Source: an uncultured Prevotellaceae bacterium
Lineage (GTDB): Bacteria > Bacteroidota > Bacteroidia > Bacteroidales > Bacteroidaceae
Length of the DNA stretch: 64,000 nucleotides
NCBI GenBank assembly: GCA_902778535.1
Contig: CACYYG010000003.1
Span: 13,345-77,344 of the forward strand
Direction: 5' to 3'
How positions within the stretch are numbered: the first letter of the stretch is position 1; every line of letters begins with the position of its first letter. Under the pieces are notes generated by a model. That model did no database searches. It was not told the origin of the DNA and saw only the letters and a list, made by a program, of their open reading frames with translations. The position numbers and the translations under genes are program-made. Positions 37,401 through 62,882 of the stretch are shown here, in pieces.

Positions 37401-40400
37401 AGCTCCCGTCGGAGTCCAGTGGCTTCGATGTGACGCTGCACACCCGTGGCATGGCCACCGTTGACCTCTTCGTCACCCGTGATGGCATCATACAGAGCGG
37501 CTATTATGGCGACAAGGAAGACTATTTCGCCGGCCAGCCGCTCGCCAAGGTCGTCGGCAAGAGCCTCACGGAAAAGATTCTTGCCGTTCAGGACTGGCAG
37601 CGTTTTGACAGTGAAGACCTTCATATCGGGGCAGAGGGCATGAACACGTTCTATGACACGATGCTTGTGAACTTCGTGGACAAGTATGGTCGGCAATGGG
37701 ACGTGAAGACCGAGGATGTGGAGATGCGCCACCTTGACATCACGGGCAGGATGCACTCCGTCGCTGTCACGCCGCAGATGCGTGACGATGTGAGGAAGGG
37801 CCAGCCGATGTTCTTCCTGGACGGCAGCCGTCAGGCTTATGGCTTCACCTATGACGGGGAGGTCTATGTCGACAGGCGTGTCGCCACTGCTGAGACTCCC
37901 ATCCATGAGTACACCCACCTGTGGGCTGAGGTACTGCGCCAGCGCAACCCGAAGGAATGGGAGAACATCGTCTCGCTGATGAAGGGGTGCCCGGAGCTGT
38001 GGAAAGAAGTCACTGGGCGTTACGCCCATCTGCATGATGAGAGTGACATCGCCGAGGAAGTTCTTGCCCACTATAGCGGGCAGCGGGGCTACCAGCGGCT
38101 GATGGCTGACTATGGTCGCCGTCAGGACGTGACGGGCCATGCCATCCTCGACATTCTCTCGGAAGCCCTTGCAAGGCTCTGGAAGACTGTTGCCGATTTC
38201 CTGCATATCCACTATACCACCAAGGAACAAGTCGCCGACCAGGTGCTGAGTGACCTGCTGAACCGTGTCAATCCCTTGGACTACAAGACAGAGGTCATTT
38301 CTGCCGGAGCGGTCCTCTCAGGCCGTATAACGGAAGATGTCGTGCGTGCCATGTCTGAGCAAGGCACACGGTTCGAGACCCTTCATTCCCTCCATGACCG
38401 TGCGGACTATCTCACCTTTGGCGAAGTCAAGGACTATGGTGGAAAGCCTTTTGTTGATGTCATCAGCCATTACCCCAATGGCAGGGCGGCCCGTCTTAGT
38501 TCACCTCTGGACAGCGAGATGCGCTACCTGAACGATGAAGTCATCAAGATGACCGTGAAGGACGACCTCATCCTGCGGCTGCCGCCCTCGGGTGCATACC
38601 GCGAGAGCCAGGAAGAACAGGTCGAAAGCGCGTATTTCAAGGAGTGGTTCGGTGACTGGCAGCATGACCCTGAGAAAGCCTCCAAGGTTGTGGATGCTGA
38701 CGGGCGTCCGCTTGTCGTGGAGCATGGCACCCATGCCTCGTTCACAGAGTTTGACATCAGCCGCCTGGGTCAGAACAGCGGTGATGCCGGGCATTACGGT
38801 GCAGGCTTCTACTTCGGCACCAAGGCACCCGGATGGCTGGAAGCTCCTGTCACCATGAAGGCCTATCTTGACATGAAGCATCCATTCGAGATCGATGCTG
38901 GCATTCAGAGGAATATCTATGACTATCTGAAGGAGCATTTTGACCAGCCGGCCCTGCGCAAGCTGGTGCTTACCGAGAATGGCAAGGAGCTGACCCTTGG
39001 CGACTACATTGACCATATCAAGGCTGTTGACAACCTTATCAGTGGCAATATGCCATATGTCGAAGAGCAGATGTCGAAGGATGCCGAGCTTCAGTATTAT
39101 AAGCCCGATGTCCGTCTGGATGTATGGCGTGAGCATGAGCTTTCGCGCCGTACCGGCTTCATCATCCCCGGTTCCCTTCCATACGTCATAGGTGAGATGA
39201 TCGGCTCCGAGAACTTCACTATAGGCTTGAAGGAAGATGGCTATGACGGTGTCATTGCCACTCACCACTATGATGATGGTCACGAATACAAGGATTACGT
39301 CGTATTCGAGCCAGGCCAGATTAAGTCCGCCACGGACAATGTGGGGCTGTTCAGCAAGAAGTCCAATGACATCCGCTATCATCTTTCAGGTGAAGAGGTA
39401 TACACCACAGTAATGAAGGAAGGAACGCAGCCCAGTGTCTCTTCCCGCCATCTGACACCCCAGGACCGTGAGGCCGGAGGTGCCCTTGTGGACCATCTGG
39501 CCAGGATGGGCATCACTGTCCATACCGACAATAATGAGAACCGCCGCATCCTGAAGGCTGCCCGACTAGACAACAGCGAGGCTGGCAAGGTACGCCATTT
39601 CAAGACCCAGGACGGCAATACCTATGGCTTCGCCTATAAGGGACAGCTGCACCTCGACCTGCGGAAGATTGATGCGGAGCTGCCTCTCCATGAATATGCC
39701 CACCTCTGGTGTGAGGCCCTGCGCCGCATCAATCCTGAGAACTGGAACCGTGTCGTGTCCATGCTCAGGGACGATGCCGCTTCCTGGCAGTTCGTCCGTG
39801 CCGCCTATCCCGAGCTCCAAGACGCCGATGATGTCGCCGAGGAGGTCATCGCCCATTACAGTGGCCGGCATGGCGCTGAGAAGCTGCGTGACGAGCTGGC
39901 ACGGATGACCCCTCGTGATGCCAACTATGGCAGCCGTTGGGGCAATATCTTCCAGAATGTCAGCAAGGCCATCCAGGACTTCTGGAAGCATGTCGGCGAC
40001 TCCCTGAACATCCAGTACGTCAGTGCCGAGGATGTCTACGACCAGATCCTTAATGACTTTGCCAAGAAGGTCAATCCCGTGGCAAAAGTTGAGAAATACC
40101 TCAAGGAGCGTGACAGAATTTATGAGCAGTGCGTCGAGGGCGGTGACCTCGACACGGCAGCGGCCATGTTCGAGGAAGCCCTTCAGGAGCACGTCGGGGG
40201 TGGTGTGACGCCATTCATGGCCGTTGACGGCTATCGTGGCAAGCTCGACCGTCTAGCGCGTGATGTCAAGGGCGGCTCTGACGATGCCATCCGTCGTGCC
40301 GCCGCCCTCATGGCACCTCTCGTCCCCGTCTATTCCGTGCTGGTGCCTGCTCCCGGCCATGAGGGCTATGCCACTGACATGCTGGCTCTTGCCAATGCCA

Positions 40401-43400
40401 TCTCCCAAGAGACGGGTGCCCCTGTCGCCGATGTCCTGAAAGGGGATCCCAGGGAACGCCAGTATGACGTGAAGAAGGCCACCGGCAAGCCGATGACCGC
40501 CGATGCCATGGGCATCCGCATGGAAGGCGTGTTGCCTCAGGGCTATATGCCTGTTGTCATCGACAATGTGGTGCACAGCGGTAATACCGCCGAAGCCTGT
40601 GTCAGGGCCTTGGGAAAGGGTGTCGTGCTCTCACTGGCCAGTGCCGTCAGCCAGGAGCGCCATGTATCTTCGCTGATGAGCCTGGAGCCTGTCGTCTATG
40701 ACAAGGAAGGTGTGCTCATACCCCTCAGCGAGCGTTTCAACCTGAAAAGCAGATACCTCGGCAGGGCGATGGAGTACCGTCCTCTGGATGAGGGATTGCA
40801 TGTGGCCGAGCCGTTGACCATAGACATCCGCACGGGAAACAGTCATAGCCCGCTTGACAGCTATCTCGGTTCCAAAGCCGTCTATGACGCCGTTCTCTCC
40901 TTGTCAGGAAGCCGAGACAAGCTGGTGGCAGGCTATGAAGATCCTGACAGCGGCGACTATGTGTTTGTCGGCACCCATGCCCATGTCATGCGGTCGTATG
41001 ACAAGGAGCATCTTGGCAGCTTCTCGCAACATGACGGCCATGATGCCGTGTATCGTATCCACCTGTCAGATGGCAGCTTGTATTCTGTCTCTATCCTCTC
41101 TGCAAGCCTGGTCCATGACGGGTATAACCTTGCTGTCATAGGCAAGGAAAAGGTTCGGGAGCTGATGGACTCGAAAGGTCATGCGACGCTTCAGAGCCTA
41201 TCGCGCCCTGTCGTCCGCAGTGCCGTGCAGCTCGACCTATTCAGGGATGCACCTGCCATGGAAGAATCTACGGAAGCTGCCGCTGTCCATGCCAGTCAGG
41301 GAAGTACTGAAGACACCTCCCTCGACCTCACCGCCCTCCACCTGCGCGACCTTGCAGATGGTGAGCAGTGCTTCGTGGAACGCCGCTACCGTGAGAACGG
41401 CTTCTTCAGTTTTGTCGGTGGCGAGTCAATAGATTCCGCCGAGGATGTGGCTTTCATCTTCAGAAGTCTTGAAGACCAGAGCGTGGAGAACAGCTTCCTT
41501 GCCATGGTGAAGGACGGCAAGCCGTTGGTCATCCATCTGGGCATAGGTACCTATAATGAGGTGCCTGCTCCCATCGAGAAGGCTCTTGTCGCCTTCAATG
41601 AGCTGAAACCGGATAAGGTATGGTTCGTCCATAACCATCCCAGCGGGTCGCTGAAGGCCAGCTTCCTTGACATGAAGATGCATCAGCGCATGCAGGAGGT
41701 CTTCGGTGCTGCCGTGCAGCCGAGTATCATCATTGACACCACGTCAGGAAAATACGGGGAATACACTGATGTGTACAGTGTTGACCTTCCGCTCTCGGGT
41801 AATGACGAAAGCCACATGGTATCTGTGCCTACCTTCCAGTTCGACCGCCAGGTCTTTTCCAAGGGATGGAACCCAGAGCATTCCATGATGGCATCATCGG
41901 CAGCCTCCATCGCCGGTTTTGTCAGCAGCCAACGCCTTGGTGAGCGTGACAAGCTCAGCCTTATCGTGCTTGACCAGGCACAGCATATCACGGGGAATGT
42001 CTTCATTCCCTGGAACACTACCAAGGCTATTGTCAAGGGTGGCCATGCCGGTGAGCTTGCCGGCTATGTCCACCAGATGGGCGGCAACCGCTGCATCATC
42101 TATGGCAGTGAGGACGGTGTGCGCATGACAGATACGGAAACGATGACCATGCTCTCCAAGCAGCTGAAGTCCTTTGGAGTGCGCCTTGAAGACATCATGT
42201 CCGTCAGCAGGAGTGCTTTCCAGGAAGGCATCTTCTATGCCAAGGAGGAAGACAGGGGTTATAGTATGGCCGGTGAAGCCGTCATCGACGAGACGGTAAG
42301 GCCCATCCAGGGGCTGGAGAACTATTCAGAGGCTGAGATACAGGACTCTGTCAGGGAATATTTCGGTTCCATGCTGGAAGGAACGGATGTTGATGTTGAG
42401 ATTGTCGGAATGAAAGTCATCGGCAGCCGTATGGAAGGTACAGGCACGGCAGACAGCGACCTTGACGTTCTCTTGGAGTACAAGGGCGATTTCAGCGAGG
42501 ACAGTCTCTTCAACATCCTCAATGATGCCGATGACCGCCTGTATATTGAGGGCATCCCTGTTGACATCAATCCCATCACGGAAGGCAAGAGCGGTACCAT
42601 CCGCGAGTTTCTGGAGCGTAATGCGGGCTACAGGAAGGCGGAACCTGTTGATAACGATACAGCGAAGAAGTCTATGAACCATGATGAGAACGACATGTAT
42701 GTGGAGCCAAAAAAGTCTTCACATCGAGATTTAGACGCTACTGTCAGGCAGTTGTTGTCCCGTGATGACTCTTTCCGCTATCAGATGCTTGATCGTCTGC
42801 GTGTTGACTGTAACTATTTCCTTGGTCATGGCGGAAGGTATGAGGGCAGCCTCTGGGCCGGAAATGTCAATGACCATATAGCTGTCATGAAGGAGCTGTG
42901 GAAGTCCCTTCCCGAGAAGCCGGAATGGCTGACGATGGAGCAGATTGACGCATATGCCAGGGACATGGGGGCAGGGCTGGACTCTGCCGTCGAGCATTAC
43001 TCGGATGAGCAGTCTGCCATTGTCAAGGATGCCGTCTGTGATTACCTTCAGGGTGTTCGTGATGACTATTACCCCCATGCGATGATGGAAAGGGCTGAAA
43101 TCGACATGGCCGTCCATCATGAAGATGTGCGTTCCACCGAGGATGCGGCCCGTGTCGCCCATGAGGTCAGCGTGGAGATGCTCCTTCGTGCGGAGTCCGT
43201 GGAGCCGGGTATCGTGGAGCGATATACAGGAGAGTCCTTGGGCATGGAGGCAAGACGTATGGCTTCTGATGCCACTGCATACGCCAGTACTGTGCTGTAT
43301 AACAGGGAGAATGACATGGAGCGTAAGCTGGAAGAAAAAGTGTCTGTCCTTAATATAGCCCTGAAGACGGCACGGCCATCTGACTTACGTGCCATGGGCA

Positions 43401-46400
43401 TGAATGCTACATTGTATTCGATAGAGAAAAAGGATGATGCCCATTTCGCCCTGATAGAGCATGACGGTGATGATACCCGTTTCGCCACCAGCTGGATTTC
43501 AGCCGTGGCCGTCGAGGGACATATGGATGTCATCCTAGGTGCAGTCACCGAAAACCAGCAGAAAGAAATAGCCGCTGACGAGTATATCCGTCAGGAGTTT
43601 CAGGAACATCTTGACAGCCTTCGTGACATCCTTGGCGAGGCAAGGGACATGATTGCGGACAAGATTGTCATCCGTCCCGTGACGATTGAGTTGGGAGGAG
43701 AGTCCGCGACTGTTGAACAGATAGAAGAGATTAACGGCAAGTACCTTGCGGGCAACAGCCAGGACTTGTTGTCAGACCTTTGCAGCTACCGTGACGTAAC
43801 GGAACTGGCCACTGCCGTCCGTGAGGCCCAGATGGCACATCTGTTAGGCAACGGACAGATAGACTTCGTGAAGCGTACTGGCTCACCCCAGAAGTTCGTC
43901 AATGACACCCTCACGAATGAGATGGCATATATCAGGGACATCAGCTGCCATGAAGGGCGTGTCAGCATCAACGGAGCCATAGACATGGACGGAACACCCG
44001 GCTATGTTGTCGGGCTGAAGGACTTGCAGCCTGACGGCATCCGTCATCTGTTGGAGGAGGTCAGGAAGGTAGTGGAGTGGAAGCCGGAGCTGAACCTCAC
44101 CGCAGACCAGGCCCTGATGGTGGCCGAAGCTCATCACCTCTATGATGAGGTGGAACAGGACATCAAGGGCGGCCTGGAGCCGGAGCTGGCATTGCAGAAA
44201 TACCATATCATGCCGGATGAGGAACGTCTGGCCGAGATCATTCAGATGAACGACCCTACGCAGCTGCCGCCTGTCGATGCCGTCAGGCTTCTGCTTGACA
44301 AGGCTATCCCCAATGACGGCGATGTGCTGCACCTCGACGGGAGCGGTGCCCCCATTGACCTGCAGTACCAGTCCTTCGGATGGCAGCAGCTGGACGACGT
44401 AAAGTATATCAGGCATATCGGTGACGGCTATGTCGCTGGTAACGGCGAGATGTCTATTGATGTCAGCCGTCTTGCCTCCGGTCCCGATGGTGACTATTTG
44501 GTGAAAATCATTAACGACAATATTAAACTCATGGAGGACAAAACTATGGAAGAAAAGAAACAAGAAGTGGCACAGGTGCAGCAGGAGCAGCAGCCTGAGC
44601 AGAAGAAGAAAGGCTGGAATATCGACTACACGAAGTATTCCATGCCGGAGGGAGTCAGCGTCGAGAAAGCCCAGGTGTTCAAGCTGACTCGCGGTGAGAA
44701 CGAAGGACGATGGGCCGTCACTGCCGTCGTTGACGGGCAGCGCAAGACCCAGGTCATGTTCAAGAACGATGTAGACGCTTTCTTCGAGAAGGATGAGCAG
44801 GGACAGCTTAAGCCAACCAACCCTACTGCCGAGCAGCTGGTGGCCAAGTATTTCGCGCCGAAGGCTCAGGAGCAGGCTGCCGCTGTCCAGGAAGAACAGG
44901 GACAGCAGGCTCAGCAACAGGAGCCTGAGCAGCAGGAGGTCCAGGCCACGCAGGATGCCGGAAAGCGCAAAGGCTGGAATATTGACTATACGAAGTATTC
45001 CATGCCGGAGGGCGTGAATGTCGAGAAAGCCCAGGTGTTCAAGATGGATCAGGGTGACAATGCCGGCAAGTATGCCATTTCTGCCGTCATCGACGGACAG
45101 CGCAAGACCCAGGTCATGTTCAAGAATGACGTCGATGCCTATTTCAGTAAAGATGAACAAGGCAACCGCAAGGCTACTGCCGAGCAGCTAGTAGCCAAGT
45201 ATTTCTCTCCTAACACGCAGAAGCAGCCCATCCCCGTCAAGGAGGAACAGCAAGAGCAGCGGGCTGGGGAAAAGCAGGAGGCCCAGGCCAAGCAGGATGA
45301 TGGCAAGCGGAAAGGCTGGAATATCGACTATTCCAAGTATTCCATGCCCGAGGGTGCGGTCGTTTCCAACTCCTTTGTCAAGAAGGATGACAAAAGCGGC
45401 AAGTACCGTCTCTTTGCCACCATCAACGGTGAGTTCCGCTCTGCCGACCTGTACCCCAACGACCGTCAGGCTTTCTTCGAGAAGAACGAGGCCGGTGAGC
45501 GTAAGGCCACCACGGAGCAGCTTGTGGCTAAGTATTTCTCCAAGTCCACGGCTGAGAAGATGGGGCTTGCTTCCGTGGCAGAACAGCCACGGCAAGAGAC
45601 AAAGCATCTCGGTACCTATGATGTGCCCGTCTGGGCGGTGGCCGCCTTGCAGAACGGCACCGATGCCTATGATGGTCTGCAGGAGGATGAGATTTCGGAG
45701 ATAGAGCATTTCCAGGAGCAGTTCGACGGCCCGCTCTCCTTCGATGTCCATATGGAAGACCGTAACGAGTTCAATCCCTCGCCCGCCTTCGGTGCTGCCT
45801 GTGAGACTGTCAAGGTCGATGTGTACACCTTCGTGGAGAAGGTGAGCCGTGCACAGGCCGAGGTGCGTGAGAACCTCGAAGAAGATAAGGTCGCCGAGGA
45901 CATCAATAAGGAGCATGAGGAGAAGAAGCAAGAGGAGCAGAAGAAGGAGGGCAAGCAAGATGTGTCCGCCGGTCTGGCTCTCCAGACCGCCCTCTTGGTC
46001 GGTGCCCTCCATGCAGCTGCAGAGAAGGATGGCATCTGGATGAACAGGCTGTGCAAGCAGGCTCCCGCTTTCATGGGCAAGGACACGAAAATCACTCCGT
46101 TTAACAGCATGGTGATGGCTTTGCACTCCGATGCCAATGGCTACAAGAGCAATCTCTATACCACCTTCGCCGCTGCCAAGAATGACGGTGTCAGCGTCCG
46201 TGGCAAGGAAAAGGGACTGCCTTATAACTGGTATGATTGGGACAAGTACGTCAACAAGTACGTCAATAATGATGTCATCGACCGTGCCGCCTACCAGGCT
46301 CTGCCGCAGGAAGAGCGTGAGCTGTACCGTGTCCAGGGCAAGAAGGAGATGAAGCCCATCTTCAATATCGACCAGACGACGCTGCCGATGGAGAAAAAGG

Positions 46401-48220
46401 AGGAGTACAAGACCCTCGTGGGTGCTGTTGACCAAGAGACGCAGGAAGAAATGTCGCCAGCAGAGAAACAGGCTGCCCGTCAGGAGCGTTTTGCGGAGAT
46501 GACCGAGAAATATCCCGACAGCGTCAAGCTCTTCCGCGTCGATGACGGCTATGAGATCTATGGCGAGGATGCTGAGAAGGCTGCGGACATCCTTAGCCTT
46601 CCTCTCGTCAAGGAAAAGGATGGCGATGCCAATGTCCTTTCTACCTCCGTCAGTTTCCCGATGGAAGACCTCGATGCCTATATTCCAATTCTTGTCCATG
46701 AAGGCACAAAGATAGCCATCTGTGATGACCTGGAGGATGCTGACCTACGCCGTCACACCCCGGAGGCTGAGCTGTATGCCGCCTCCGACAAGCTGGTGGA
46801 AGCTATCCGCCTGACGGGTGTTGACATCGACAGCAATGGTGTCACCCGTTATGATGCTGGAAAGAACACACTCTATGTCGCTGACCGCACGCAGACGAAG
46901 CCAGGTCAGGAGATGACCCTTGCCATCGACCGTGCCTGTGATGTCTACCGTGCCGCCGTCGCCTACACGGGTACTGAGGACAGGCTGAATCGCGGACAGC
47001 GCGAGCGGATGCTTCCTGAGGACCGTGACAAGTATGACCGTCTCGTCCAGGAGCTGACGGCAGGTGTGATGATGACCCGTCAGGGCCTTCCCGCCACTAT
47101 CAGCGAGAAGAACCGCGAGTTGGTTCCCTATTGGGAGCGTGAGCTGAAGGAAGACCCGAAGCTCCTTGACAGCGTGGAGCGTGACGTGAACAATGCCGTG
47201 CAGGTGCTAGACAAGGTTGCTGCAGGACAGCAGGTGGACTATGCCGCCATGCGTGGTGAGCGTCCTGCGGTCATGACACGCCCTAGGATGTATACCATTG
47301 CCAGCGAGCTGGCCACCATTCCGAGCACTGAGCATAAGCAGGCAGTTATCGTGAAGGATGAGAAAGCAAAGGCTGCTTCCGTTATACTTCCCTCCGGGGC
47401 TTCGTCGGAGATGAACAACGAGATCCCGGGCATGAACAAGAACCGCTATGTCGTTGCGCTGAAGCGTGAGGGCTTTGACGATGTGAAGTTCTACAATGCC
47501 GGTGGTGCTCTCGGCCTTAACCAGCCCAATGAGTTCTTTGCTGACAAGCAGGTGGAGGTGGCTCACCTGAAGCAGTACGAGCTGATTACGGACGAGCGCA
47601 TCGACTTGTCGGCAGAGCTGGCAAGAACCAGCCAGGTGGAGATAGAGAAGGTCACTGCCATCAGGAATGACAAGGAGGATTGGGTGTTCTATGTGAAGCC
47701 TACCGAGGGTGAGGCTGTCACCATTATGCCGGATGCTGCCGACCTCCATCGCTTCTTCAATGCCGTCAAGGATGAGAATTTCGATGACGTGCGTCAGGAA
47801 ATGGGTAGGAAATACTATGCCCTTGCCCAGCAATTCCCTCATCTGAAACAGGACTTCATCATGCCCAAGGTGGAGAATGTGGACCTGTCACGAATCAGCT
47901 ACGCCACAATGTTCAAGTCCAAGTTCCATGAGGGCAAGGCTTGTGTCACGTGTGTCTATGATGACGGCAAGAAGCTGGCTACGGAGATTGACCGTGGCAG
48001 CAAGGAGTGGCAGCGTCTCTGGCTCGTCGATGACCAGAAGGGCTATAAGATTGCCGTGGCTGCGAAGCTCTTTGAGAATGAGCTGAACAAGGGCCAGGAG
48101 AAGAATGTCGTTCAGGCCCAGGACGAGCCGGTCAAGGAAACAGAGATGGTCACCGTCGATGACGACCAGGAAGAGGTTGAGGAAGAGCAGCAGGTAACAC
48201 GTCCTTCTTTCCACAGATAA
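28436..48220 (+). CDS. Giant (6594 aa) polyvalent protein: N6-adenine MTase + SNF2 helicase (DarB-like) followed by PRTase, MutS-I, zincin, ART-like, RadC/JAB, nucleotidyltransferase, LPD11-like, repeat and ArdC-like domains
   Basis: LDPSAGKG (~28820), NIPF (~29021), DHEVGTGKT (~31097), IDESQAFKN (~31595), MEQRNGR (~32600); downstream motifs are itemised in the findings. Confidence 0.92.
44600..45545 (+). repeat. Three ~350-nt coding repeats beginning K-G-W-N-I-D-Y-[TS]-K-Y-S-M-P-E-G
   Basis: Copies start at ~44602, ~44965 and ~45305, each ending in EQLVAKYF and separated by Q/E-rich linkers. Confidence 0.9.
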
Positions 48221-52955: not shown

Positions 52956-52976
52956 CAATGAATATATTTTTTGTTT

Positions 52977-53996
52977 ATGAAGAATTATTATCTATTGCTG
53001 GCCACCATGGTAATTGTTTCATTATTTCCATCTGTGACGCATGGCCAAGAAAGTAAAGAGGGAAGGTCATACTGGATAGACCGCTACCTGAGTGTCAGCT
53101 ATCCGTTGGCAAATATTGAGGTCACATCGCCCTTTGGCGAGCGCAATGATCCCTTCACGGGTCAGCGTACGAGCCATTCCGGTCTTGACCTGCGTGCTAG
53201 TTATGAGCAGGTCATGGCCATGTTTGACGGTCGCGTCGAGCGTATAGGTAATGATGACCGCTCAGGAAACTTCGTTATACTACAACATGGGGAGTATACC
53301 GTATGTTATTGTCATCTGTCAAAGGTGCTTGTCTATAAGGATGATTCCGTCTACGCAGGTTTGCCTGTAGCAGTGAGCGGAAGTACAGGACGCAGCTCTG
53401 GCCCGCATCTTCATATCACCGCAAGGAGAAATGGAAAACTGGTCAATCCATATAGCCTGTTATTATATATTAGAAATACACGTGAGGAATGTGTCAAGGC
53501 TTTACAGCCGGTTACAGCAGTACCAAAAGACAAGAAGACTTTCTTCCAGCAATATGCCACAGTTGCGATGGAGCATCAGCGTCGATATGGCATCCCTGCC
53601 TCTGTGACCCTTGCACAGATGGCCCTGGAGAGTGGCTACGGCGAGTCCGAGCTGGCACGCAAGGGTAACAATTTCTTCGGTATTAAGGTGGGCAGCTCAT
53701 GGAAAGGAGCGAGGAGCTGGCATGATGATGATGTTCCTGGGTATTTCAGGAACTATGATTCTGTGTGGGAAAGCATTGAAGACCATTCTCGTCTTTTGAT
53801 GACAGACAGGTACAAGCGTTGTCGATACTACGATAGTACCGACTACCATAATTGGTTAGTAGAGATAAAACGTGCAGGCTATGCCAGTGCCAAGGATTAT
53901 GTAGAAAGTTGCGAAAGTGTTATCAAAAAATACAAGTTATACAACTACGACAGGGAAGCAGCGTCTTATGCCTTTTTTCATCCCTCAGAGCTATAA
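52977..53996 (+). CDS. M23 peptidase + glucosaminidase (GH73)
   Basis: HSGLDL, YCHL, HLHI; then IPASVTLAQMALESGYG...NFFGIK. Confidence 0.88.
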   Translation: MKNYYLLLATMVIVSLFPSVTHGQESKEGRSYWIDRYLSVSYPLANIEVTSPFGERNDPFTGQRTSHSGLDLRASYEQVMAMFDGRVERIGNDDRSGNFVILQHGEYTVCYCHLSKVLVYKDDSVYAGLPVAVSGSTGRSSGPHLHITARRNGKLVNPYSLLLYIRNTREECVKALQPVTAVPKDKKTFFQQYATVAMEHQRRYGIPASVTLAQMALESGYGESELARKGNNFFGIKVGSSWKGARSWHDDDVPGYFRNYDSVWESIEDHSRLLMTDRYKRCRYYDSTDYHNWLVEIKRAGYASAKDYVESCESVIKKYKLYNYDREAASYAFFHPSEL

Positions 53997-54423
53997 CGAC
54001 TTATCCAGTCGGCTAGCGTAGAACGAGGCCACAATGGCTTCCGGAAGAACAAGTCGATGTAGAAGCAGAAGAGGATCCGCTGGAGTACCGCATCGACGGG
54101 ACGAATGCTTTCGATACGTTGTAAATAGGCTGTGAAAAATTCCTGCATTATGATATCTACCCTGACACAATAGGCGGCATCTTGCAGTCTTCTACTCAAA
54201 CAGGTCTAATTATCTAAGAGAATTTGTACTCTTGCCCCAAAAACTGATAGTTATGAGTAAAGAAAGTCAGACAATTTCGACGAGTAAATATCATCTCTCG
54301 CATACGACATTGATGAAGCATTTCTTGAAACACTCAAGAAACATGGTGATTTTGTGATATCGATGTTATGCGCGTACATATTAAAAAAAATAAAAAATAT
54401 TTCATTTTTTGCTTCAAATTTGC

Positions 54424-54600
54424 TAACTTTGTAGCCAATTAGCAGTTTTGGCGTAAGCCTTCACCGCTACCCGACAAAGACCAATAAGGCTAAAAGCCTA
54501 AAACATAGAAATATAGAACTCCCTTATAGCGAATTAAAAGGTTTGGTCACCTGTCGAGTCGCTATTTGGGAGTTTCTACGTTTAAAGAGTTTAATATCAA
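54424..54600 (+). promoter_or_regulatory. -7 box TAACTTTG (54424-54431) and a ~180-nt structured 5' leader
   Basis: Perfect -7 box; several complementary segments before ATG 54619 (see findings). Confidence 0.55.
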
Positions 54601-54618
54601 CTACTAAATAATTAAATC

Positions 54619-55251
54619 ATGAGTAAACTTAAAGATTTAGCATTTTCACTAAACTTATCAGCAGGAATACCTGGTATGAATATACAATCTAAGACTGCTG
54701 ACAAATTTCAGGAGTATGCAGATGCTTTATACGACTATACAACAAAAAATCTAGAAGATTTTTTATCAATAAGTGATAATGATGGTTATCACGTAGGAAT
54801 GGCATTTAGCCACATCTTAGAACATACTTCTTACAAAGAATCTGACAATGTTTTCAATGAAGAAAACAACAAATTTAACATGTCTCTTCACTGTACAGTT
54901 ATAGGTCTGTGGAGAGGTATACAAATGGGAACGATGCAATCAGTCATTGCTGCGCAAAGGTTAATTTATCTTCTAGAAAAGTATAAAACCCATTTCGACA
55001 TTATGTATGCCAAATTGACAGGAATGTCATTAAATGATCTAATGGAATCTGATAAAGAAGATGTAGAAGCGAAGAAAGAGAACATATGCAAGTGCATCCT
55101 GTATTATTTGATACAAATTACAAAGGCACAAGACGCTTTCAAAGATGCTAACATGAAAGCTTGTGAAATAGGAAAGAAATACCTAGACGTGATGCATGAT
55201 GAATATTGTGAAGATTTAAAAGGCTTTTCTTTGTTTGGCATCATAATGTAA
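54619..55251 (+). CDS. Hypothetical helical protein (210 aa)
   Basis: Long ORF in AT-rich DNA; first gene after the leader; no recognised motif. Confidence 0.7.
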   Translation: MSKLKDLAFSLNLSAGIPGMNIQSKTADKFQEYADALYDYTTKNLEDFLSISDNDGYHVGMAFSHILEHTSYKESDNVFNEENNKFNMSLHCTVIGLWRGIQMGTMQSVIAAQRLIYLLEKYKTHFDIMYAKLTGMSLNDLMESDKEDVEAKKENICKCILYYLIQITKAQDAFKDANMKACEIGKKYLDVMHDEYCEDLKGFSLFGIIM

Positions 55252-55263
55252 AAATTATATAAT

Positions 55264-55590
55264 ATGCAAATTAACGCAAACAACATAAGTCCTATCGTTT
55301 TCGAAAAGGCAAAAAAATATCTCCCAGTAAGACTGTCAACAACATCTTTTGATGGTATCGGTGAATGTATGTGCATTGTTGCTAACAGAGCTGATGGCAT
55401 GACAACAGAAATAGTTGAGAACATAAATTCAGAAGTATTTATCACACTGATGAATTCAGCGCTATACGAGGATATAAAACGTCGAGTTTTGAATATGGAC
55501 TATTGGGTTCCCAATAAATGGTATAACACGATTATTGGCTTCGCTGATGGTATAGAACGTAAAATTCATTTAGATTGTGACGTTTTCTAA
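55264..55590 (+). CDS. Hypothetical protein (108 aa)
   Basis: Tight operon spacing (12 nt before, 21 nt after). Confidence 0.6.
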   Translation: MQINANNISPIVFEKAKKYLPVRLSTTSFDGIGECMCIVANRADGMTTEIVENINSEVFITLMNSALYEDIKRRVLNMDYWVPNKWYNTIIGFADGIERKIHLDCDVF

Positions 55591-55611
55591 AGTTCTCAAA
55601 TACAAATAGAA

Positions 55612-56676
55612 ATGGCATCTTGGCAACACAGAGATATAAAAGTTAATGGTGTGCCTGTTAAAGCGCAGGCTCCTATTATCGTTTCTGCAAGCAGAAGTAC
55701 TGACATTCCTGCTTTTTATGCAGATTGGTTCTTCGATAGGTTAGGAAAAGGGTACTCAGCATGGACAAACCCTTTCAACGGCGTAAAGTCATATATATCA
55801 TACGACCTAACACGCTTCATTGTATTCTGGTCTAAAAATCCTGAGCCTTTAATACCCTATTTGCACATACTAAAAGAGAAGAATATAAAGTGCTATATTC
55901 AATACACGTTGAATGACTACGAGGAAGAAAAACTTGAAAAGGTTCCACTTCTCGTAAAACGAATTGAAACATTCAAGTCACTTGTTAAGATATTAGGTAA
56001 AGGTGCTGTTATTTGGCGTTTTGACCCAATGATTCTTACAGATAATATTAGTGTAGAACTACTTCTTGAAAAAGTTAAGAATATAGGTGACCAATTGAAA
56101 GGATATACTGAGAAACTTGTTTTCAGTTATGCTGACATCGCTATGTATTCAAAAGTAAAGCGAAATCTCAAGACAAATGGAATACCTTATCATGAGTGGG
56201 AAGCCTCTCAAATGGAAGAATTTGCAGAGAAACTATCTGCAATGAATGAAGAAAGAGGATGGAACTACAATCTTGCTACATGTGGCGAGAAAATTAATAT
56301 TGAAAAATATAAAATTCTTCATAACCGATGTGTTGATGGCGACTTAATTACCCGTCTAGCCTGGGAAGACAAAGAACTAATGAAGTTCATGGGAGTGAAG
56401 ATTGAAAATGTTCCGCAACCTTCTCTTTTCGGAAGCATCGAATTACCAGAAGGCGCAATTCTTCTTCCTCAGAATCACTATTTCATAAGCACTCATAAGA
56501 AAGATCCAGGGCAACGCCAGTTCTGTGAATGCATGGCATCGAAAGATATAGGTGAATATAACACATGTCCTCACCTTTGCGAGTATTGTTATGCCAATGC
56601 GACTAAAGAACTAGCACTAGACAATTGGAAAAAGCATCAAGAAAACAAATACAGTGATACGATAACAGGAAAATAA
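55612..56676 (+). CDS. DUF1848 family protein (radical-SAM/SPL-like)
   Basis: IVSASRSTDIPAFY, IVFWSKNP, IWRFDP, DIGEYNTCPHLCEYCYAN (CxxxCxxC). Confidence 0.88.
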   Translation: MASWQHRDIKVNGVPVKAQAPIIVSASRSTDIPAFYADWFFDRLGKGYSAWTNPFNGVKSYISYDLTRFIVFWSKNPEPLIPYLHILKEKNIKCYIQYTLNDYEEEKLEKVPLLVKRIETFKSLVKILGKGAVIWRFDPMILTDNISVELLLEKVKNIGDQLKGYTEKLVFSYADIAMYSKVKRNLKTNGIPYHEWEASQMEEFAEKLSAMNEERGWNYNLATCGEKINIEKYKILHNRCVDGDLITRLAWEDKELMKFMGVKIENVPQPSLFGSIELPEGAILLPQNHYFISTHKKDPGQRQFCECMASKDIGEYNTCPHLCEYCYANATKELALDNWKKHQENKYSDTITGK

Positions 56677-56678
56677 TT

Positions 56679-59600
56679 ATGCCCGGCTTCATAGAAACAT
56701 TCATAAGTAGAGGAGATTTCTCATTTAAGGGAATGAGAAATACTGCTATTGCACTACTTCCGAGAAGCAGGATGGAGCGCGACAAGCTCTATAATGACTT
56801 GAAACGAGGTATAGGCATACTAGATGACGATGATCACTTGAATATGTATCTAAATAGTTTTGGCAAAATGCACAAAGCAAAACTTGATACAGCATTCAAT
56901 TGTATTCAAAACCCCTCTGAGCTATTCAGAAATCCTGTAGATGTATATGATTGGGGATGCGGACAAGGTACTGCTACAATTTGCCTTCTTGATTTTTTAA
57001 AGGAAAAATCAATTAACGCTAACATCAGGTCAATAAACCTTATTGATCCTTCTTTGGCGGCTGTTGAAAGGGCAACAGATGTTATCGGATGCTACAGTGA
57101 CTACCAAATTAACCAAGTCACAAAGGTATTTGATGATTTACAATCAGAAGATCTTTCACATTCTGAAAATCTAAAAATACATCTATTCAGTAACATTCTC
57201 GACGTATACATGTTCGACCTTGCACAATTCATCCATCTTTTTCAAGAATCGTTCAAGGGCGACAACTATTTCATTTGTGTTGGACCGTACTATGCAAACA
57301 ATAACCGTGTAGATGAGTTTATTGCCGCAACCGACCCTGACACCATGTTTGCAATAGCGAATAGGGAAAGAGGAAAGTGGTTGAATGAATGGACTATATC
57401 ATTAAGAGTATTCTGCAAAACATTTGCTCAGACAGAAACTGTTCAGAATATTAGAAAGCGTATCGAGGAATCTCAAAAGAAACAACAATTTTTTGCTGGC
57501 TATATCCTGGACGCAGTTGCTGAAGAATATAAAGGCACCGACATAGAAGAGATTACTGAGGAACTGTTTAACTCTCTTTCGGCCTTTGACGTTAAATCGA
57601 ATTTGCCACTTGATACGAATAGTGAATGTAACTCAAAACTTGCTATTATAGCAAACATAATATCAAGAGGCTTACCAACTAAAGCCCCAATATATTTAGA
57701 AAATCTTTTTTCAGAAATCTATGGTATTTCGAAGAAACCCGAGGAAGGATCTATTTTAGAATTTCCATCTACCCACAAGATCAATGCAACAAATATTAAT
57801 GATGCATTGCATATAATAGACCCACGCTTTGATGTAGAAACGTATGATGGTGATATGCTGGAAAGTAGTTTCGAAAAATCATTTATCGAAAACTACCTCA
57901 AAAACTCAGATAGTCAATATCTGATTCAATTATTGGAACCGCAGCGTCCACTTTCTACCATTGTGGATATTCCTGACCGAAAGTTTAGCAAAGACCAAAG
58001 GGTTGACTTTGCTTTAGAAATACCCTATGGGGATTCGGATACTGGCTTTATCATAGAAGTAGATGGTAGACACTATCATTCTAATATTTTCCAACGCTTA
58101 AGAGATGAGCGAAGAGATCGGATGTCTTTAAATAGAGGTTGGGACACTTACCGTATCGACCAGATACAAAATACCGCGTTCATAGATAATTGGGAAAAAG
58201 AAGCGTCAACCTCTCAATATCTGTCTAAGATAAAGACAAATAACTCCAAGTCAATAACTGGTGCTTGGAAAGACACCTTACAAATTGTCTTGGCGCCTAT
58301 TGCTATAGCGCGAATAGAAAGAATGCTTGTTGAAGCAATGATGTCAGGTGCTTTAGATCTAAATTCTGAAACATGGAATATCGTAGTGGTTGAAAGAGAC
58401 GTACCTTGTGCAGCCATTGCTTTATATGACCTCCAAGAAAGGTATAACATGCTTAGCGGTCTTGCTGGTGACTTTGACAAACTGCCACGGATTAACCTAT
58501 CCATTGTCTCTACAAACGAGTTTTGTGATTCAAAGTTGCACTTGGATTTTAAGGCATCAACAGACATGCCAAAGGCACATTTTGACCTGTGCATTGATAT
58601 TTCCATGCTGCTTCGAGACAATATAGATGCACTACCTTTGCATATAGATGCAGACGCTTTTTATCTTGTGCGTTCATCTCACTACAAGAAACGCGAAAGA
58701 ATTATCTGTTCAGCAGAGAACATACAGTATCCTGCTCTTGTTACAAGAGATGAAGCAGGAGCCTACAAGAATATAAAAGAACGTGAAGGCTTCCTAACAT
58801 ATTTTCTTCGTGATATATTCCGTAAGCCTTCATTTAGGCCTGGTCAACTCCCAATACTTAGCCATGCACTTGCAGATAAGACAACAATTGGTTTACTTCC
58901 TACAGGAGGTGGAAAATCTCTGACTTACCAGTTATCATGTATCTTGCAACCTGGCGTTTCCATCATTGTGGACCCATTGGTTTCTCTGATGGTAGACCAA
59001 GTAAGAGGGCTGCAAGATATTCGCATAGATGCTTGTGGTTGTGTACATAGTGGCATGAATGGGATGGAGAAAGCGAAAAAGCTAAACCTTTTACAGAAAG
59101 GGGCTGCCTTCTTGATGCTTCTGTCGCCAGAGCGCTTTATGATGGAAAACTTTAGGGATAGCCTTTTAACTATGACTGAAAAGAACCATATCTATTTCTC
59201 CTATGGAGTAATAGATGAAGTCCATTGCGTTTCAGAATGGGGGCATGATTTCCGAACATCATACCTACATTTAGGACGAAATATGATTAACTTCATGCAC
59301 ACTAAATCTGAAAGGCCTCTTTCAGTTATAGGCTTGACAGCTACTGCTTCCTTCGACGTTCTTGCAGACGTAGAAAGAGAGTTAACACTTGGGGGAAATC
59401 TGGCTATAGATAGCGAAGCTGTTGTTAGACCCGAAAATGATGCAAGGCCCGAGCTGACATATCGCATTATTAATATACATGCAGACTACGAGACCTTAAG
59501 GGATTCTACAGAGCCATATATACTTAACATAAATAATGACTGGGACCTAAAAGATGTAGTTGCAGAAGCAAAGAAAAAGGAATTGGAACAAATCTTCAAA

Positions 59601-61886
59601 ATTGTTCCTGAAGATATTGACTCTCTCAATTCGACTAATGAGTCTTGCAGGGTGCCAAATTACGCTTCATCAGCTTTCTTCACTCCTACAAGTCAGCATA
59701 AATACACAAATGCCGGCATTGTTTTCTGCCCTCATGCAAGAGGAACATTTGGTGTTCAAACAAATGAATGGGGTACGAGAATTGGCATCTCAGAAACTCT
59801 TTCAGAAGAAAATGATTTCTTGAAGGTCGGAAAATTCGTAGGTGGTGACAAACCATCTGGAGACATGAAATCCTTTAACGAAAACGACCAGAATTTGATG
59901 GTTGCCACAAAAGCCTTTGGAATGGGTATTGACAAACCCAATATTCGATATACAGTTCATATCAACCATCCTGCTTCTATAGAAAGTTACGTACAAGAGG
60001 CAGGCCGTGGTGGACGTGATAGAAAAAATGCCATTTCATATGTGCTTTTCGAAAATACAGAATATGTCCATTTTACTGTTGACAAGATAAACGACATACG
60101 TTATTATATGGGGGCTGCTGACCCAGTCTGGCTAGAGAGATACATTAACAAATTTGTTTTACTGAACGATATTCCTGAATTGTGTGCAAGAAACGGAGCA
60201 AATGCGGAACAAACGACATCGCTCATCAATATATTACATACATATAATTATCTTGAGAATGTTGACAAGAATATCGACCTGTGGTTTCATAACGAATCAT
60301 TCCGAGGACTTTTCAAAGAAAAAGTGATTCTGACTGAAATGACAGACCGCATTTTGAATGTCAAGCCTTCATATATATTAGAAGTTCAAGGTATGCTTCG
60401 GGAACTGACAGGTAACAACGATGTTAGTCTCAGAGTTGATAGGAACCGAAACAGTGTCATTCTATTTTCTGAAGAAGACAACCACAACCAATACGGATAC
60501 TTATTCTTAGACCGATTGTATCCAATATACAGAAACGTGAATTTCGACTATGCCACTTGCCAATATGTTACTAACAGCTTAATATCAATCTTACAGAGAT
60601 ACGAAGATCATTCAGCAACTTTTCTTCTCCGTCCATTGGAAGGTGAAGACAATCTTGCTGAAGGCATTTATAGTGCGATGGCTCAAGCCGATGAAGATGG
60701 GTATGTTTATGTAACCGTTTCTTGGGAAAACCAAATTCAACAGGCCCCAGAAGATTTTGAACGTAGCATAAGAGAAGAAATAAAAAGAATTGCAGATTCA
60801 CAACAATGGCAGAATATCGATGAAGCAAGATATGGTAGACTCAACCTCAGAAAAGTTGGAGACTTTGATGAATTGATTGCCCAAATTGCTAGATGTTCAA
60901 ATGATTCACGTTGGTTAAGAAACCATGGTAACGAGCAATTGTATAGACAACTTAATCTCTGTTTTTGCAAGAAAAGAGACAAAAATGATACCGATAAGGC
61001 TATATACCGAATGTGCTGTATCGGATTGGTAGAAGACGTCACTATCGATTATTTGTCACAAACATACGAGCTTAAAATTAAAAAACGGACAGACGAAGAG
61101 TTCAGGCAATACATGCTTGATTTCTTTAGAAAGTATTATTCTCTTGAACAGGCTCAAACAAGAGTTAATCAAATAGACCAGCAAAGAGGTCGTAACTATC
61201 TCGACAAATGCCTTGGATATTTAACAGCATTTGTATATGAAAACCTAGAAAAGAAACGCTACCGTGCAATCGAAGACATGAGGATTGCTTGTGAAGATAG
61301 CATCACAGAAAGAGAGAAAACAAATAGTGACGAATGGTTGAAAGAATTTATTCACCTATATTTCAACTCTAAATACGCAAGAACGGGGTATCAGGTAAAT
61401 GGAGCCGACTATTCTCTTACTGATGACACGGATGAGAGAGGAGAAGATACTTATGATGTTGTAAAAAAATATATAGACATCATACCAAATGATGGTTCTG
61501 GAAGCGAGATTGATAATGTGAAACACCTATATGGTGCCACTTTGTTATGTCTTAGAGCGCACCCCGATAATCCCGCATTGCAACTCCTTCTAACTTACTG
61601 TATTACATTCTTAGGTGCAGGAACTAACGAGACTTTGAAAGCCAATGCCTTCAATGGTTATATGGATGGTTTTATGACACTATATAAAAAGGACAAATCT
61701 AATTTCTGGAACAACATGAGCCATTTTAATTCTTGTTTGGCTGCAAAAGTTCATAATGATGATGATTATATTAGAGAGAACATAATTGAGAAAGGTAAAG
61801 AAACGGTAACCCTATTCATTCATGAAGAGAGATTAAATGAAATTTCATCTTCATACCTTCAATTTCCTGAAGAAACCGATAATTAA
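56679..61886 (+). CDS. 1735-aa RecQ-family helicase with N-terminal SAM-MTase-like and DUF559/Vsr-like nuclease domains
   Basis: DWGCGQG (~56949); RVDFALE...IEVDGRHYH (~58000-58080); LPTGGGKS (~58895); DEVHCVSEWGHDFR (~59215); ATKAFGMGIDKPN (~59905); YVQEAGRGGRD. Confidence 0.9.
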   Translation: MPGFIETFISRGDFSFKGMRNTAIALLPRSRMERDKLYNDLKRGIGILDDDDHLNMYLNSFGKMHKAKLDTAFNCIQNPSELFRNPVDVYDWGCGQGTATICLLDFLKEKSINANIRSINLIDPSLAAVERATDVIGCYSDYQINQVTKVFDDLQSEDLSHSENLKIHLFSNILDVYMFDLAQFIHLFQESFKGDNYFICVGPYYANNNRVDEFIAATDPDTMFAIANRERGKWLNEWTISLRVFCKTFAQTETVQNIRKRIEESQKKQQFFAGYILDAVAEEYKGTDIEEITEELFNSLSAFDVKSNLPLDTNSECNSKLAIIANIISRGLPTKAPIYLENLFSEIYGISKKPEEGSILEFPSTHKINATNINDALHIIDPRFDVETYDGDMLESSFEKSFIENYLKNSDSQYLIQLLEPQRPLSTIVDIPDRKFSKDQRVDFALEIPYGDSDTGFIIEVDGRHYHSNIFQRLRDERRDRMSLNRGWDTYRIDQIQNTAFIDNWEKEASTSQYLSKIKTNNSKSITGAWKDTLQIVLAPIAIARIERMLVEAMMSGALDLNSETWNIVVVERDVPCAAIALYDLQERYNMLSGLAGDFDKLPRINLSIVSTNEFCDSKLHLDFKASTDMPKAHFDLCIDISMLLRDNIDALPLHIDADAFYLVRSSHYKKRERIICSAENIQYPALVTRDEAGAYKNIKEREGFLTYFLRDIFRKPSFRPGQLPILSHALADKTTIGLLPTGGGKSLTYQLSCILQPGVSIIVDPLVSLMVDQVRGLQDIRIDACGCVHSGMNGMEKAKKLNLLQKGAAFLMLLSPERFMMENFRDSLLTMTEKNHIYFSYGVIDEVHCVSEWGHDFRTSYLHLGRNMINFMHTKSERPLSVIGLTATASFDVLADVERELTLGGNLAIDSEAVVRPENDARPELTYRIINIHADYETLRDSTEPYILNINNDWDLKDVVAEAKKKELEQIFKIVPEDIDSLNSTNESCRVPNYASSAFFTPTSQHKYTNAGIVFCPHARGTFGVQTNEWGTRIGISETLSEENDFLKVGKFVGGDKPSGDMKSFNENDQNLMVATKAFGMGIDKPNIRYTVHINHPASIESYVQEAGRGGRDRKNAISYVLFENTEYVHFTVDKINDIRYYMGAADPVWLERYINKFVLLNDIPELCARNGANAEQTTSLINILHTYNYLENVDKNIDLWFHNESFRGLFKEKVILTEMTDRILNVKPSYILEVQGMLRELTGNNDVSLRVDRNRNSVILFSEEDNHNQYGYLFLDRLYPIYRNVNFDYATCQYVTNSLISILQRYEDHSATFLLRPLEGEDNLAEGIYSAMAQADEDGYVYVTVSWENQIQQAPEDFERSIREEIKRIADSQQWQNIDEARYGRLNLRKVGDFDELIAQIARCSNDSRWLRNHGNEQLYRQLNLCFCKKRDKNDTDKAIYRMCCIGLVEDVTIDYLSQTYELKIKKRTDEEFRQYMLDFFRKYYSLEQAQTRVNQIDQQRGRNYLDKCLGYLTAFVYENLEKKRYRAIEDMRIACEDSITEREKTNSDEWLKEFIHLYFNSKYARTGYQVNGADYSLTDDTDERGEDTYDVVKKYIDIIPNDGSGSEIDNVKHLYGATLLCLRAHPDNPALQLLLTYCITFLGAGTNETLKANAFNGYMDGFMTLYKKDKSNFWNNMSHFNSCLAAKVHNDDDYIRENIIEKGKETVTLFIHEERLNEISSSYLQFPEETDN

Positions 61887-61898
61887 AATCAATAAAAT

Positions 61899-62882
61899 AT
61901 GCCACACGACATTAATTCTGCATTAGAGAGACTTGAGCAGAATCTCGAAAATCTTGATTCTGCAAGGGAACAGGTATTAAACACTGTCAACGCCAGTAAT
62001 AAACTTACGGATATCGTTGGTATTTACGTTACTTCCGTACAAAAGTTAGTAAATAATCTTCAAGCATGGTCAGAAGATCTTTCCGCACGTGAAGCATCAT
62101 TGAAAGCAGAAACAAAATCTTCAATCGATGAAATTAAGAATTCATGCAATTTGGTTATTAACTCTTTTAGCACTAAAGCTGCTAGTCTTTCTGATAGTTT
62201 CAAAACAAAAACAGAAGAAACTATCAAATCTTTTTCGGACGAAAATACAAATCTCAAGCAAAGCATCGAGAATTTAAATGGCCTCCAAGCTAAAATACAA
62301 GCATCAGTTGAGGAGATTACTTCTATAAAAGTATCTATAGATCAAATATTGAAAGACCTAAATGATTCTCAATCTAAACAAGATGAAGACCTGAGAGTTA
62401 TCAAGGAGGATATTTCTAATTTGCCAACAACAATAAAAAATGCAGAAACTACCATTACTCAGAGTATTAGTAATACTGAAAAAACACTTTCATCTGTTTT
62501 ATCCCAAATAAAAACAGACGTTAATGCTTGCATCAACAAAGGAAATGAGATTACTAGAGATATTTCATCTTTGCAAGAAACTGCTGGCGCCATTCAATCT
62601 GCTATAGCAGATCTTTCATCTACCCAATCCCAGATAATAACCTCGGCAAAAGATGAAATCATAACCAGTATTTCAGAAAAAAGCAGTAGCTTAAATGCTA
62701 GCATTGAAAGCCTGAAGGCTACCTGTCAAACAATATCATCCTCTATTACCAATCATGCGAAAGAATTAAAGGATGAAATAGTAGCAGCAAGAAACGAATC
62801 TGCTAAAGCATCTAAAATCAACCGAATAATATTGATAATAGGAATTATTGTATTAGCCATACTTCAATTACTAATAAAGTAA
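61899..62882 (+). CDS. Coiled-coil protein with C-terminal TM anchor
   Basis: Heptad-rich S/I/L/E/K/T sequence ending RIILIIGIIVLAILQLLIK. Confidence 0.8.
   Translation: MPHDINSALERLEQNLENLDSAREQVLNTVNASNKLTDIVGIYVTSVQKLVNNLQAWSEDLSAREASLKAETKSSIDEIKNSCNLVINSFSTKAASLSDSFKTKTEETIKSFSDENTNLKQSIENLNGLQAKIQASVEEITSIKVSIDQILKDLNDSQSKQDEDLRVIKEDISNLPTTIKNAETTITQSISNTEKTLSSVLSQIKTDVNACINKGNEITRDISSLQETAGAIQSAIADLSSTQSQIITSAKDEIITSISEKSSSLNASIESLKATCQTISSSITNHAKELKDEIVAARNESAKASKINRIILIIGIIVLAILQLLIK

Follow-up and report, generated by a model that had tools for sequence, protein, structure and literature searches.

In this study, we describe a conserved, pseudoknotted RNA of ~145 nt at positions 54437-54581 of the window, by which we mean the whole 64,000-nt stretch of DNA from an uncultured Prevotellaceae bacterium that was analysed. 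We estimate a probability of about 70% that this segment is the 5' leader of a new RNA family, which is transcribed from its own promoter and acts in cis on the mRNA of a defence operon. The leader belongs to a family of related sequences with a common fold that includes a pseudoknot, with a promoter box ahead of it and with an association with one class of genes behind it, and we regard the motif as a candidate for regulating bacterial immunity genes at the RNA level. Judging from its copies, it appears to be a portable, family-wide RNA motif rather than a peculiarity of the island in the window, a point that was overlooked when the region was first interpreted from the letters of the window (the sequence-only reading). 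The safe and timely control of mobile restriction-modification and further defence genes is known mainly from type II systems, and there from a small number that have controller proteins. To our knowledge such control is almost uncharacterised in Bacteroidales, a group that dominates gut and rumen communities and has unusual promoters and translation signals.

From ~10.5 to 54 kb, the window is occupied by a Bacteroidota conjugative element of 55-59% GC, whose genes include those for ArdC, DUF4099 and M23/glucosaminidase (52971-53996) proteins and a giant ORF of 6594 aa, the latter located at 28436-48220 in the high-GC core of the element. A low-GC island (35-40% GC) follows at 54.2-63 kb, and then a minus-strand gene for a MobC coupling protein. 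The leader precedes these genes of the island:

54619-55590, + strand: genes for proteins of 210 aa and 108 aa, the first behind the leader, a portable gene pair
55612-56676, + strand: DUF1848 protein (Pfam/PADLOC/NCBIfam)
56679-61886, + strand: RecQ/DpdF-like helicase of 1735 aa with an MTES_1575 nuclease-like domain (Pfam/PADLOC/NCBIfam)
61899-62882, + strand: coiled-coil protein of 327 aa

For the DUF1848 protein, PADLOC reported its model 'RTasDUF1848', which stands for a DRT accessory, with an E value of 3e-37, and there is no reverse transcriptase in the island. Pfam, PADLOC and NCBIfam gave no match for the 210-aa and 108-aa proteins, and the ESM Atlas provided weak leads, namely helical HlyE/HBL-like proteins for the former and small phage proteins for the latter. 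The 210-aa protein belongs to a small family. Relatives of the gene pair are present in other Bacteroidales contigs with ~75% DNA identity and with homology only within the pair; in one of them (L010) the pair is preceded by genes for an Eco57I-like methylase and for a BsuBI/PstI restriction enzyme. The leader occurs independently of the 210-aa gene: at eight loci with relatives of that gene (L005-L012) the upstream DNA is unrelated, and DNA homology is limited to 54609-55590, leaving the leader and the further genes outside. Since the homology is confined to the gene pair, the leader and the 210/108-aa pair are separate modules.

The leader RNA itself is a self-contained unit, and its parts and immediate surroundings are as follows:

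54376-54423, + strand: A/T-rich region 5' of the promoter box, with blastn homology to the copies in three other genomes (G580, G534 and G648) and conserved together with the RNA
54424-54431, + strand: Bacteroidota-type -7 promoter box TAACTTTG, a match to the consensus TAnnTTTG
54440-54469, + strand: P1 hairpin at the predicted 5' end, with a GUAA tetraloop at 54453-54456; variable and dispensable
54470-54484, + strand: J1/2 single strand with both pseudoknot 5' strands (CGACA of PK1 at 54472-54476 and GACCAA of PK2 at 54479-54484), in which CGACAAAGACC is nearly invariant
54487-54499, + strand: P2 hairpin AGGCU-AAA-AGCCU, supported by covariation and single-sequence folds
54500-54513, + strand: J2/3 joining strand, A-rich, AAAACAUAGAAAUA, with a semi-conserved 'ACAUA' in alignments
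54514-54578, + strand: P3 long hairpin, made up of an outer stem (54514-54523/54568-54578), P3a (54526-54532/54559-54565) and P3b (54539-54542/54549-54552)
54543-54548 and 54552-54556, + strand: 3' strands of PK2 (UUGGUC) and PK1 (UGUCG), respectively, in the apical loop region of P3
54579-54618, + strand: linker from P3 to the start codon, A/U-rich and unstructured

No ATG is present within the leader. The sequence-only reading had taken this region for a structured 5' leader with long-range pairings, and all the strings on which it built are found in the window where it had placed them. The long stem that it described consists of 54514-54523 with 54568-54578, in which the U at 54573 is bulged, and of 54526-54532 with 54559-54565, and the loop TTGGTC-acc-TGTCG (54543-54556) is indeed complementary to CGACA-aa-GACCAA (54472-54484). 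RNAfold gave an energy of -51.1 kcal/mol for 54424-54620, compared with -33.3 +/- 3.8 kcal/mol for 200 dinucleotide shuffles, none of which was as good (z -4.72). A similar value was obtained for the reverse strand (z -4.61), and because this strand folds about equally well, folding energy alone cannot assign the strand.

Relatives of the leader were sought with several methods. Blastn gave only weak, A/T-rich promoter-like matches in its own genome, 40 relatives, 400 genomes of the order, plasmids and phages, and the exact hairpin pattern had no match in IMG/VR. The leader alone is present in four of 300 genomes of the same genus, where it is located ahead of different genes and has 78-89% identity over 54432-54581. 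A covariance model was built from these genus copies (R1) and P1 was added in a second one (R2). With R2, copies were detected in eight other genera of the family (13 of 150 genomes searched) and, within the order but outside the family, in one of 149 genomes. Copies are also found on IMG/VR contigs, where two pattern scans based on the invariant loop gave further ones, and two genomes carry two copies each. The final alignment (A9) contains 29 distinct copies. Within its own genome, the window copy is the only convincing match; a second one (C1:45695-45835), with an E value of 0.18 for R1 over the whole genome and of 0.009 in a smaller search, has no conserved loops and was set aside. Blastn homology to the copies in G580, G534 and G648 begins at 54367-54379, within the A/T-rich promoter region, and homology with other copies stops at 54581-54586, just past P3. 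In the truncated copy of G648 (L051 9429-9547), the promoter, P1, J1/2 and P2 are present and P3 is absent; this copy adjoins clpB in apparently chromosomal DNA and lies ahead of a DUF4251 gene and a PIF1 helicase. At the locus of one copy with a type I HsdR gene behind it, a tRNA gene (L066 1164-1237) is found ~260 nt upstream of the motif, which is expected when an island has inserted beside a tRNA.

A cmscan with the 4227 models of Rfam 15 reported nothing overlapping the motif, either in 53000-56000 up to E = 10 or at eight loci with divergent copies up to E = 1. Our full-text literature search did not bring up any description of an RNA motif ahead of restriction genes in Bacteroidales, and a microbiome catalogue of 1,085 candidates could hold it (10.1101/2020.03.31.018887). 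The motif is therefore previously undescribed in Rfam 15 and in the literature that we found.

Covariation among homologous leaders, a check that the sequence-only reading had proposed, turned out to be strong on the 29 copies. With the whole structure placed on A9, 89.3% of the cells are paired, compared with 37-42% when the 3' partners are slid, and 33 of the 44 pairs have changed on both sides. None of 500 shuffles equalled the observed value on any of five whole-structure measures; the copies are related by descent and have partly spread on mobile elements, so that these shuffle statistics overstate independence, a kinship weakness from which the slid-partner control is free. Among the helices in the covariance model, P1 is 79-82% paired and all six of its modelled pairs vary on both sides, P2 is 81% paired (five of five pairs vary on both sides), the outer stem of P3 is 90.9% paired (eight of ten pairs covary) and P3a is 91.3% paired (seven of seven covary). 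PK1 and P3b lie outside the covariance model, which means that the alignment was not fitted to either of them. PK1, formed by CGAC with GUCG, is 88.9% paired and five of its six pairs vary on both sides; one of them, for example, is CG in 15 copies, UA in 7 and UG in 1. P3b is 100% paired (UG 20, CG 7, AU 1, UA 1), with two of its four pairs varying on both sides. These compensatory changes support a conserved secondary structure, and those in PK1 confirm that the structured leader contains a genuine long-range pseudoknot.

The second part of the pseudoknot has to be viewed differently. The PK2 core, GACC with GGUC, is invariant in 28 of 28 copies, and most of the P3b and loop sequence does not vary either, so that covariation lends no support to the pairing of these parts; the PK2 sequence is compatible with pairing and we treat it as a candidate helix only. 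This invariant PK2 and P3b-loop sequence could instead be recognised by a protein, or at the level of DNA. The two segments of J1/2 pair on either side of P3b and are bridged by two nucleotides, AA, and since the pseudoknot and P3b share only one base pair, the helices can coexist and are not mutually exclusive. P1, P2 and P3 formed in single-sequence folds of every copy tested, with P1 sequences that differ from each other. P1 is missing from a methylase-linked subtype, in which the -7 box is ~20 nt closer.

The sequence-only reading had also invoked a two-state switch, in which AAGGCT (54486-54491) would alternate between AGCCTT in P1 (54456-54461) and AGCCT in P2 (54495-54499). Both of these possible partners are present in the window. 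However, the complement in P1 is private to the window among the 29 copies, three others having unrelated 5-mer matches to the alternative site (4/29 in all), the methylase-linked subtype lacks P1 altogether, and the minimum-energy and centroid folds of the window both use the local P2 pairing. This part of the earlier proposal did not hold up, and we consider such a switch scarcely credible.

The known -7 promoter consensus of Bacteroides is TAnnTTTG, which TAACTTTG at 54424-54431 fits. It is the sole TAnnTTTG on the + strand in 53900-55000, 12 such boxes being present across the 64-kb window, and no sigma-70-type promoter-like site was found in 53900-54800. A TAnnTTTG box is present upstream of the PK1 strand in 25 of the 29 copies, at a distance of 40-46 nt in copies with P1 and of 19-23 nt in copies without it. 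Based on the Bacteroides promoter consensus, transcription is predicted to start at ~54437-54439, which would place the beginning of P1 1-3 nt 3' of the start. The sequence-only reading would have been contradicted by a transcript starting downstream of the paired segments; the predicted box lies 5' of them in these 25 copies, and the motif is situated between the match to the promoter-box consensus and a start codon on the same strand. The downstream gene is on the same strand as the motif in all copies. In the methylase-linked subtype without P1 (L085, L076, L084, L091, L092, L090 and L087), tandem -7 boxes are seen ~60 and ~20 nt before the pseudoknot strand, and these may represent two start sites that give rise to a long and a short leader. 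On the minus strand, the one consensus -7 box that we saw is at 54870, inside the 210-aa gene, from where an antisense transcript over the start codon and the leader could arise; this bears on the antisense-RNA target that the sequence-only reading had offered as a further possibility.

The upstream genes are unrelated among the copies and include those for Rce1-like, AbiEii, DUF805, SprT-like, AsnC and WecG proteins. The exception is a subgroup of conjugative elements, which has a conserved protein of ~580 aa and one or two WYL genes upstream. The ~580-aa protein is >91% conserved among related elements. In the window, 53862-54184 matches its C-terminus in shifted frames, past the ORF that ends at 53996, which suggests that a backbone gene may have been frameshifted or rearranged at the junction with the island. 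The WYL genes lie directly upstream of the motif in four elements (L048 10023-11733; L055 7175-8796; L052 5685-6419; L054 1419-2153) and encode WYL-domain regulators of ~244 aa and ~311 aa, the ~311-aa one with a WCX domain; they are absent in the window and in G534.

The presence of two WYL regulator genes directly upstream in four element copies would be consistent with the idea that the conserved segment is a signal at the DNA level, be it an operator, for example for a WYL protein, the recombination boundary of a cargo hotspot, or a hairpin of single-stranded DNA used in conjugation. In line with this, variable cargo starts right after P3, CGACA..GACC and GGUC..UGUCG, both invariant, amount to an imperfect inverted repeat, and the reverse strand folds equally well. 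However, compensatory changes are found in six helices and include wobbles that would be mismatched on the other strand (69 GU/UG cells vs 35 AC/CA cells), the arms of the repeat are 60 nt apart and interleaved with covarying stems, unlike those of operators, and most copies have neither a WYL gene nor a conjugative backbone nearby, nor do the copies share any one protein in their neighbourhood. In addition, the promoter box is outside the hairpins, unlike in Frpo-type single-strand promoters. A DNA site is thus a very improbable explanation. The pairing itself is 87.6% on the + strand and 83.5% on the opposite strand, a modest margin. An Frpo-type promoter in single-stranded DNA was rejected as a candidate, the -7 box being 5' of and outside all paired segments, and so was an invertible promoter (inverton): the promoter is 5' of both inverted segments (54472-54484 and 54543-54556), between which there are only 58 nt of covarying RNA stems, and all copies have one orientation to the gene.

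As the sequence-only reading had supposed for the window, a defence-type operon follows the leader, and the same holds for its relatives. The first downstream genes were compared by Pfam in 32 copies, that is the 29 aligned ones and three weaker or partial ones (L070, L072 and G648), and in 28 of the 32 this gene is a restriction, DNA-methylase or helicase/nuclease defence gene. It encodes a C5 cytosine methylase in 11 copies, one of which was called from its motif I sequence with no Pfam scan, and a D12 adenine methylase in one. Type I HsdR is found in four copies, a PLD and/or SNF2 helicase protein in six, T5orf172 in three (two of which continue with type III Mod/Res or with SNF2-DUF4391-methylase genes), a DUF1016/YhcG nuclease followed by type III Mod in one and a YgjP-like protein in one. 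The truncated G648 copy, with DUF4251 and then the PIF1 helicase, is counted among the 28, and four copies (L070, L072, L074 and the window) have a first gene without a family match. This link to one functional gene class spans nine genera. The first start codon is usually ~10-25 nt 3' of P3, and 40 nt in the window; there is no second promoter box in between, and cargo-specific sequence begins ~12 nt before the start codon. In part, the link between the motif and restriction genes could stem from co-transfer of a promoter-leader cassette.

If co-transfer accounted for the neighbouring restriction genes altogether, the motif might be a small RNA in its own right, ~145 nt long, with its 3' end at P3 and a function in trans. 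The motif has its own promoter box, homology stops sharply just past P3, the truncated G648 copy precedes unrelated genes, and a GUUUU run is seen 3-6 nt beyond P3 in some copies, all of which would suit such an RNA. However, no U tract follows the stem directly and a terminator scan found no intrinsic terminator after P3 on the + strand. Nearly all copies have a start codon on the same strand ~10-25 nt further on with no intervening promoter box, and the tie to one functional gene class holds across the nine genera. We therefore think it improbable that the RNA is released as a separate molecule, and favour the leader reading, according to which transcription would continue past P3 and the RNA would affect the genes downstream.

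For an RNA at the start of a transcript that runs into foreign genes, a role in processive antitermination or evasion of Rho, like that of put or EAR, has to be considered; the RNA would then modify RNA polymerase in such a way that long, AT-rich operons of foreign origin are read to their end. The motif is located at the start of long, AT-rich acquired operons (7.3 kb with 35-40% GC in the window), its pseudoknotted fold appears constitutive, and it serves many unrelated cargo operons. On the other hand, many copies precede a single methylase gene of ~1.2 kb, which would hardly need antitermination, and neither in sequence nor by model does the motif resemble put or EAR in Rfam. We regard this function as distinctly unlikely.

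A different possibility is that the core of the leader is a riboswitch-like sensor, which binds a small molecule such as SAM, its product or a nucleotide signal and thereby alters translation, stability or elongation. The core is aptamer-like in that the stems covary while the junctions and loops, namely CGACAAAGACC, AAAGGYUUGGUCGCCUGUC and ACAUA, are nearly invariant. The position directly before the first gene is consistent with this idea, and so is the finding that several unlinked operons of one genome carry the motif. Most of the controlled genes encode SAM-using methylases or SAM-dependent type I and III enzymes, which makes SAM the obvious candidate ligand. However, we found no element resembling a riboswitch expression platform, that is no conserved mutually exclusive structure, terminator or start-codon-sequestering helix, and the cargo sequence is variable from ~12 nt before the start codon. 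No known SAM or other riboswitch model matches the motif, and known riboswitches mostly govern the synthesis or transport of their ligand rather than its consumers. A riboswitch in this sense is unlikely, although it comes second in our ranking of possible modes of action, in which a trans factor or 5'-end protection is placed first and ligand binding is followed by antitermination, a free small RNA and, last, a DNA site.

Taken together, we favour the following model for the leader. Transcription would begin at its own Bacteroidota-type promoter (-7 box 54424-54431), and the leader would form the 5' untranslated end of an island mRNA that encodes the 210-aa and 108-aa proteins, the DUF1848 protein, the RecQ-like helicase-nuclease and the coiled-coil protein. 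The RNA folds into an optional 5'-terminal P1, a small P2 and a long P3 with a 4-bp apical P3b, and J1/2 would clamp P3b on both sides, with CGAC(A) pairing to the strand 3' of P3b (PK1) and GACC(AA) to the loop (PK2). The same RNA stands before type I, II and III restriction operons, helicase/nuclease operons and methylase genes throughout one family of Bacteroidales and its mobile elements. We infer that the leader acts in cis as a single stable folded platform, not as a two-state switch, and that it sets the amount of the first gene product. Most likely, this would be achieved either through a shared trans factor, which may be a protein of the host or of the element or a small ligand, or through protection of the 5' end. 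As a consequence, very different restriction and defence cassettes would be under one common expression control.

The occurrence of one RNA fold before type I, II and III, methylase and helicase-nuclease genes points to a shared control at the RNA level. A bolder proposal is that bacterial immunity genes have in this motif an RNA sensor of their own, which would be the first of its kind, either riboswitch-like or as a pseudoknot that recruits a protein, through which unrelated cassettes would receive a common cue; we put this forward tentatively and as something rather doubtful. If it is true, the cue might be, for example, the availability of SAM, an infection or the arrival in a new host, and any cassette placed behind the motif on a mobile element would be regulated at once. 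On conjugative elements, the motif also marks a slot into which defence cargo can be plugged. The natural compensatory variants of the pseudoknot should make reporter, probing and binding tests straightforward, and even a leader that does no more than tune stability or translation would be of use as an expression part in the genetics of Bacteroides and Prevotella.

The leader shows similarities to several known systems. As in the orphan leader motifs of the Weinberg type, which are candidate riboswitches (PMC2864571, PMC7266159), its stems covary, its junctions are invariant, a pseudoknot is present and the genes downstream belong to a consistent class, and these motifs were likewise found by homology and covariation. 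The genes are, however, restriction-modification and defence genes here, not metabolic or transport genes, and no expression platform is recognisable. With the H-type and kissing pseudoknot aptamers of SAM-II/SAM-V and preQ1 the leader shares the pairing of a hairpin loop to a single strand some distance away, the crossing of a helix by a short A-rich linker and A-rich strands that are available for groove contacts. In contrast to these aptamers, its upstream strand pairs with the loop and the 3' flank of a small stem; the leader is a much larger RNA of three hairpins and does not share any sequence or model similarity with them.

A structured, pseudoknotted RNA of ~150 nt in a defence locus of Bacteroidota is also reminiscent of the retron msr/msd, DRT2 and UG27 RNAs, and the island has a DUF1848 gene that matches a PADLOC model named for its association with reverse transcriptases. 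We considered the UG27 reverse-transcriptase-associated RNA arrays (10.64898/2026.09.22.753630) and rejected them as different, as we did a retron- or DRT-type ncRNA, since no reverse transcriptase domain is found in the island or beside other copies; moreover, the leader is present as a single copy, not as an array, and a start codon follows at once. Closer in position are HK022 put and the Bacillus EAR element, which are also structured, constitutively folded RNAs at the start of long operons and act in cis on their own transcript, but the leader does not resemble them in sequence or secondary structure and many of its copies stand before single short genes. Stem-loops at the 5' terminus are known to stabilise mRNAs by shielding them from 5'-end-dependent decay, for example in the ompA leader of E. 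coli, and P1, located 1-3 nt after the predicted start, is at such a shielding position. Unlike in the ompA leader, however, P1 is less conserved than any other part and one subtype lacks it, and the conserved core is the pseudoknot, which a simple stabiliser does not need.

Finally, the known controls of restriction-modification expression are C (controller) proteins and the antisense RNAs of type II systems (PMC3850674). The leader probably shares their purpose, which is to determine how strongly or when restriction and methylase genes are expressed, above all on mobile DNA. While each C protein, which binds DNA, or antisense RNA is specific to one system, the leader would be a cis RNA that is common to type I, II, III and helicase-nuclease systems.
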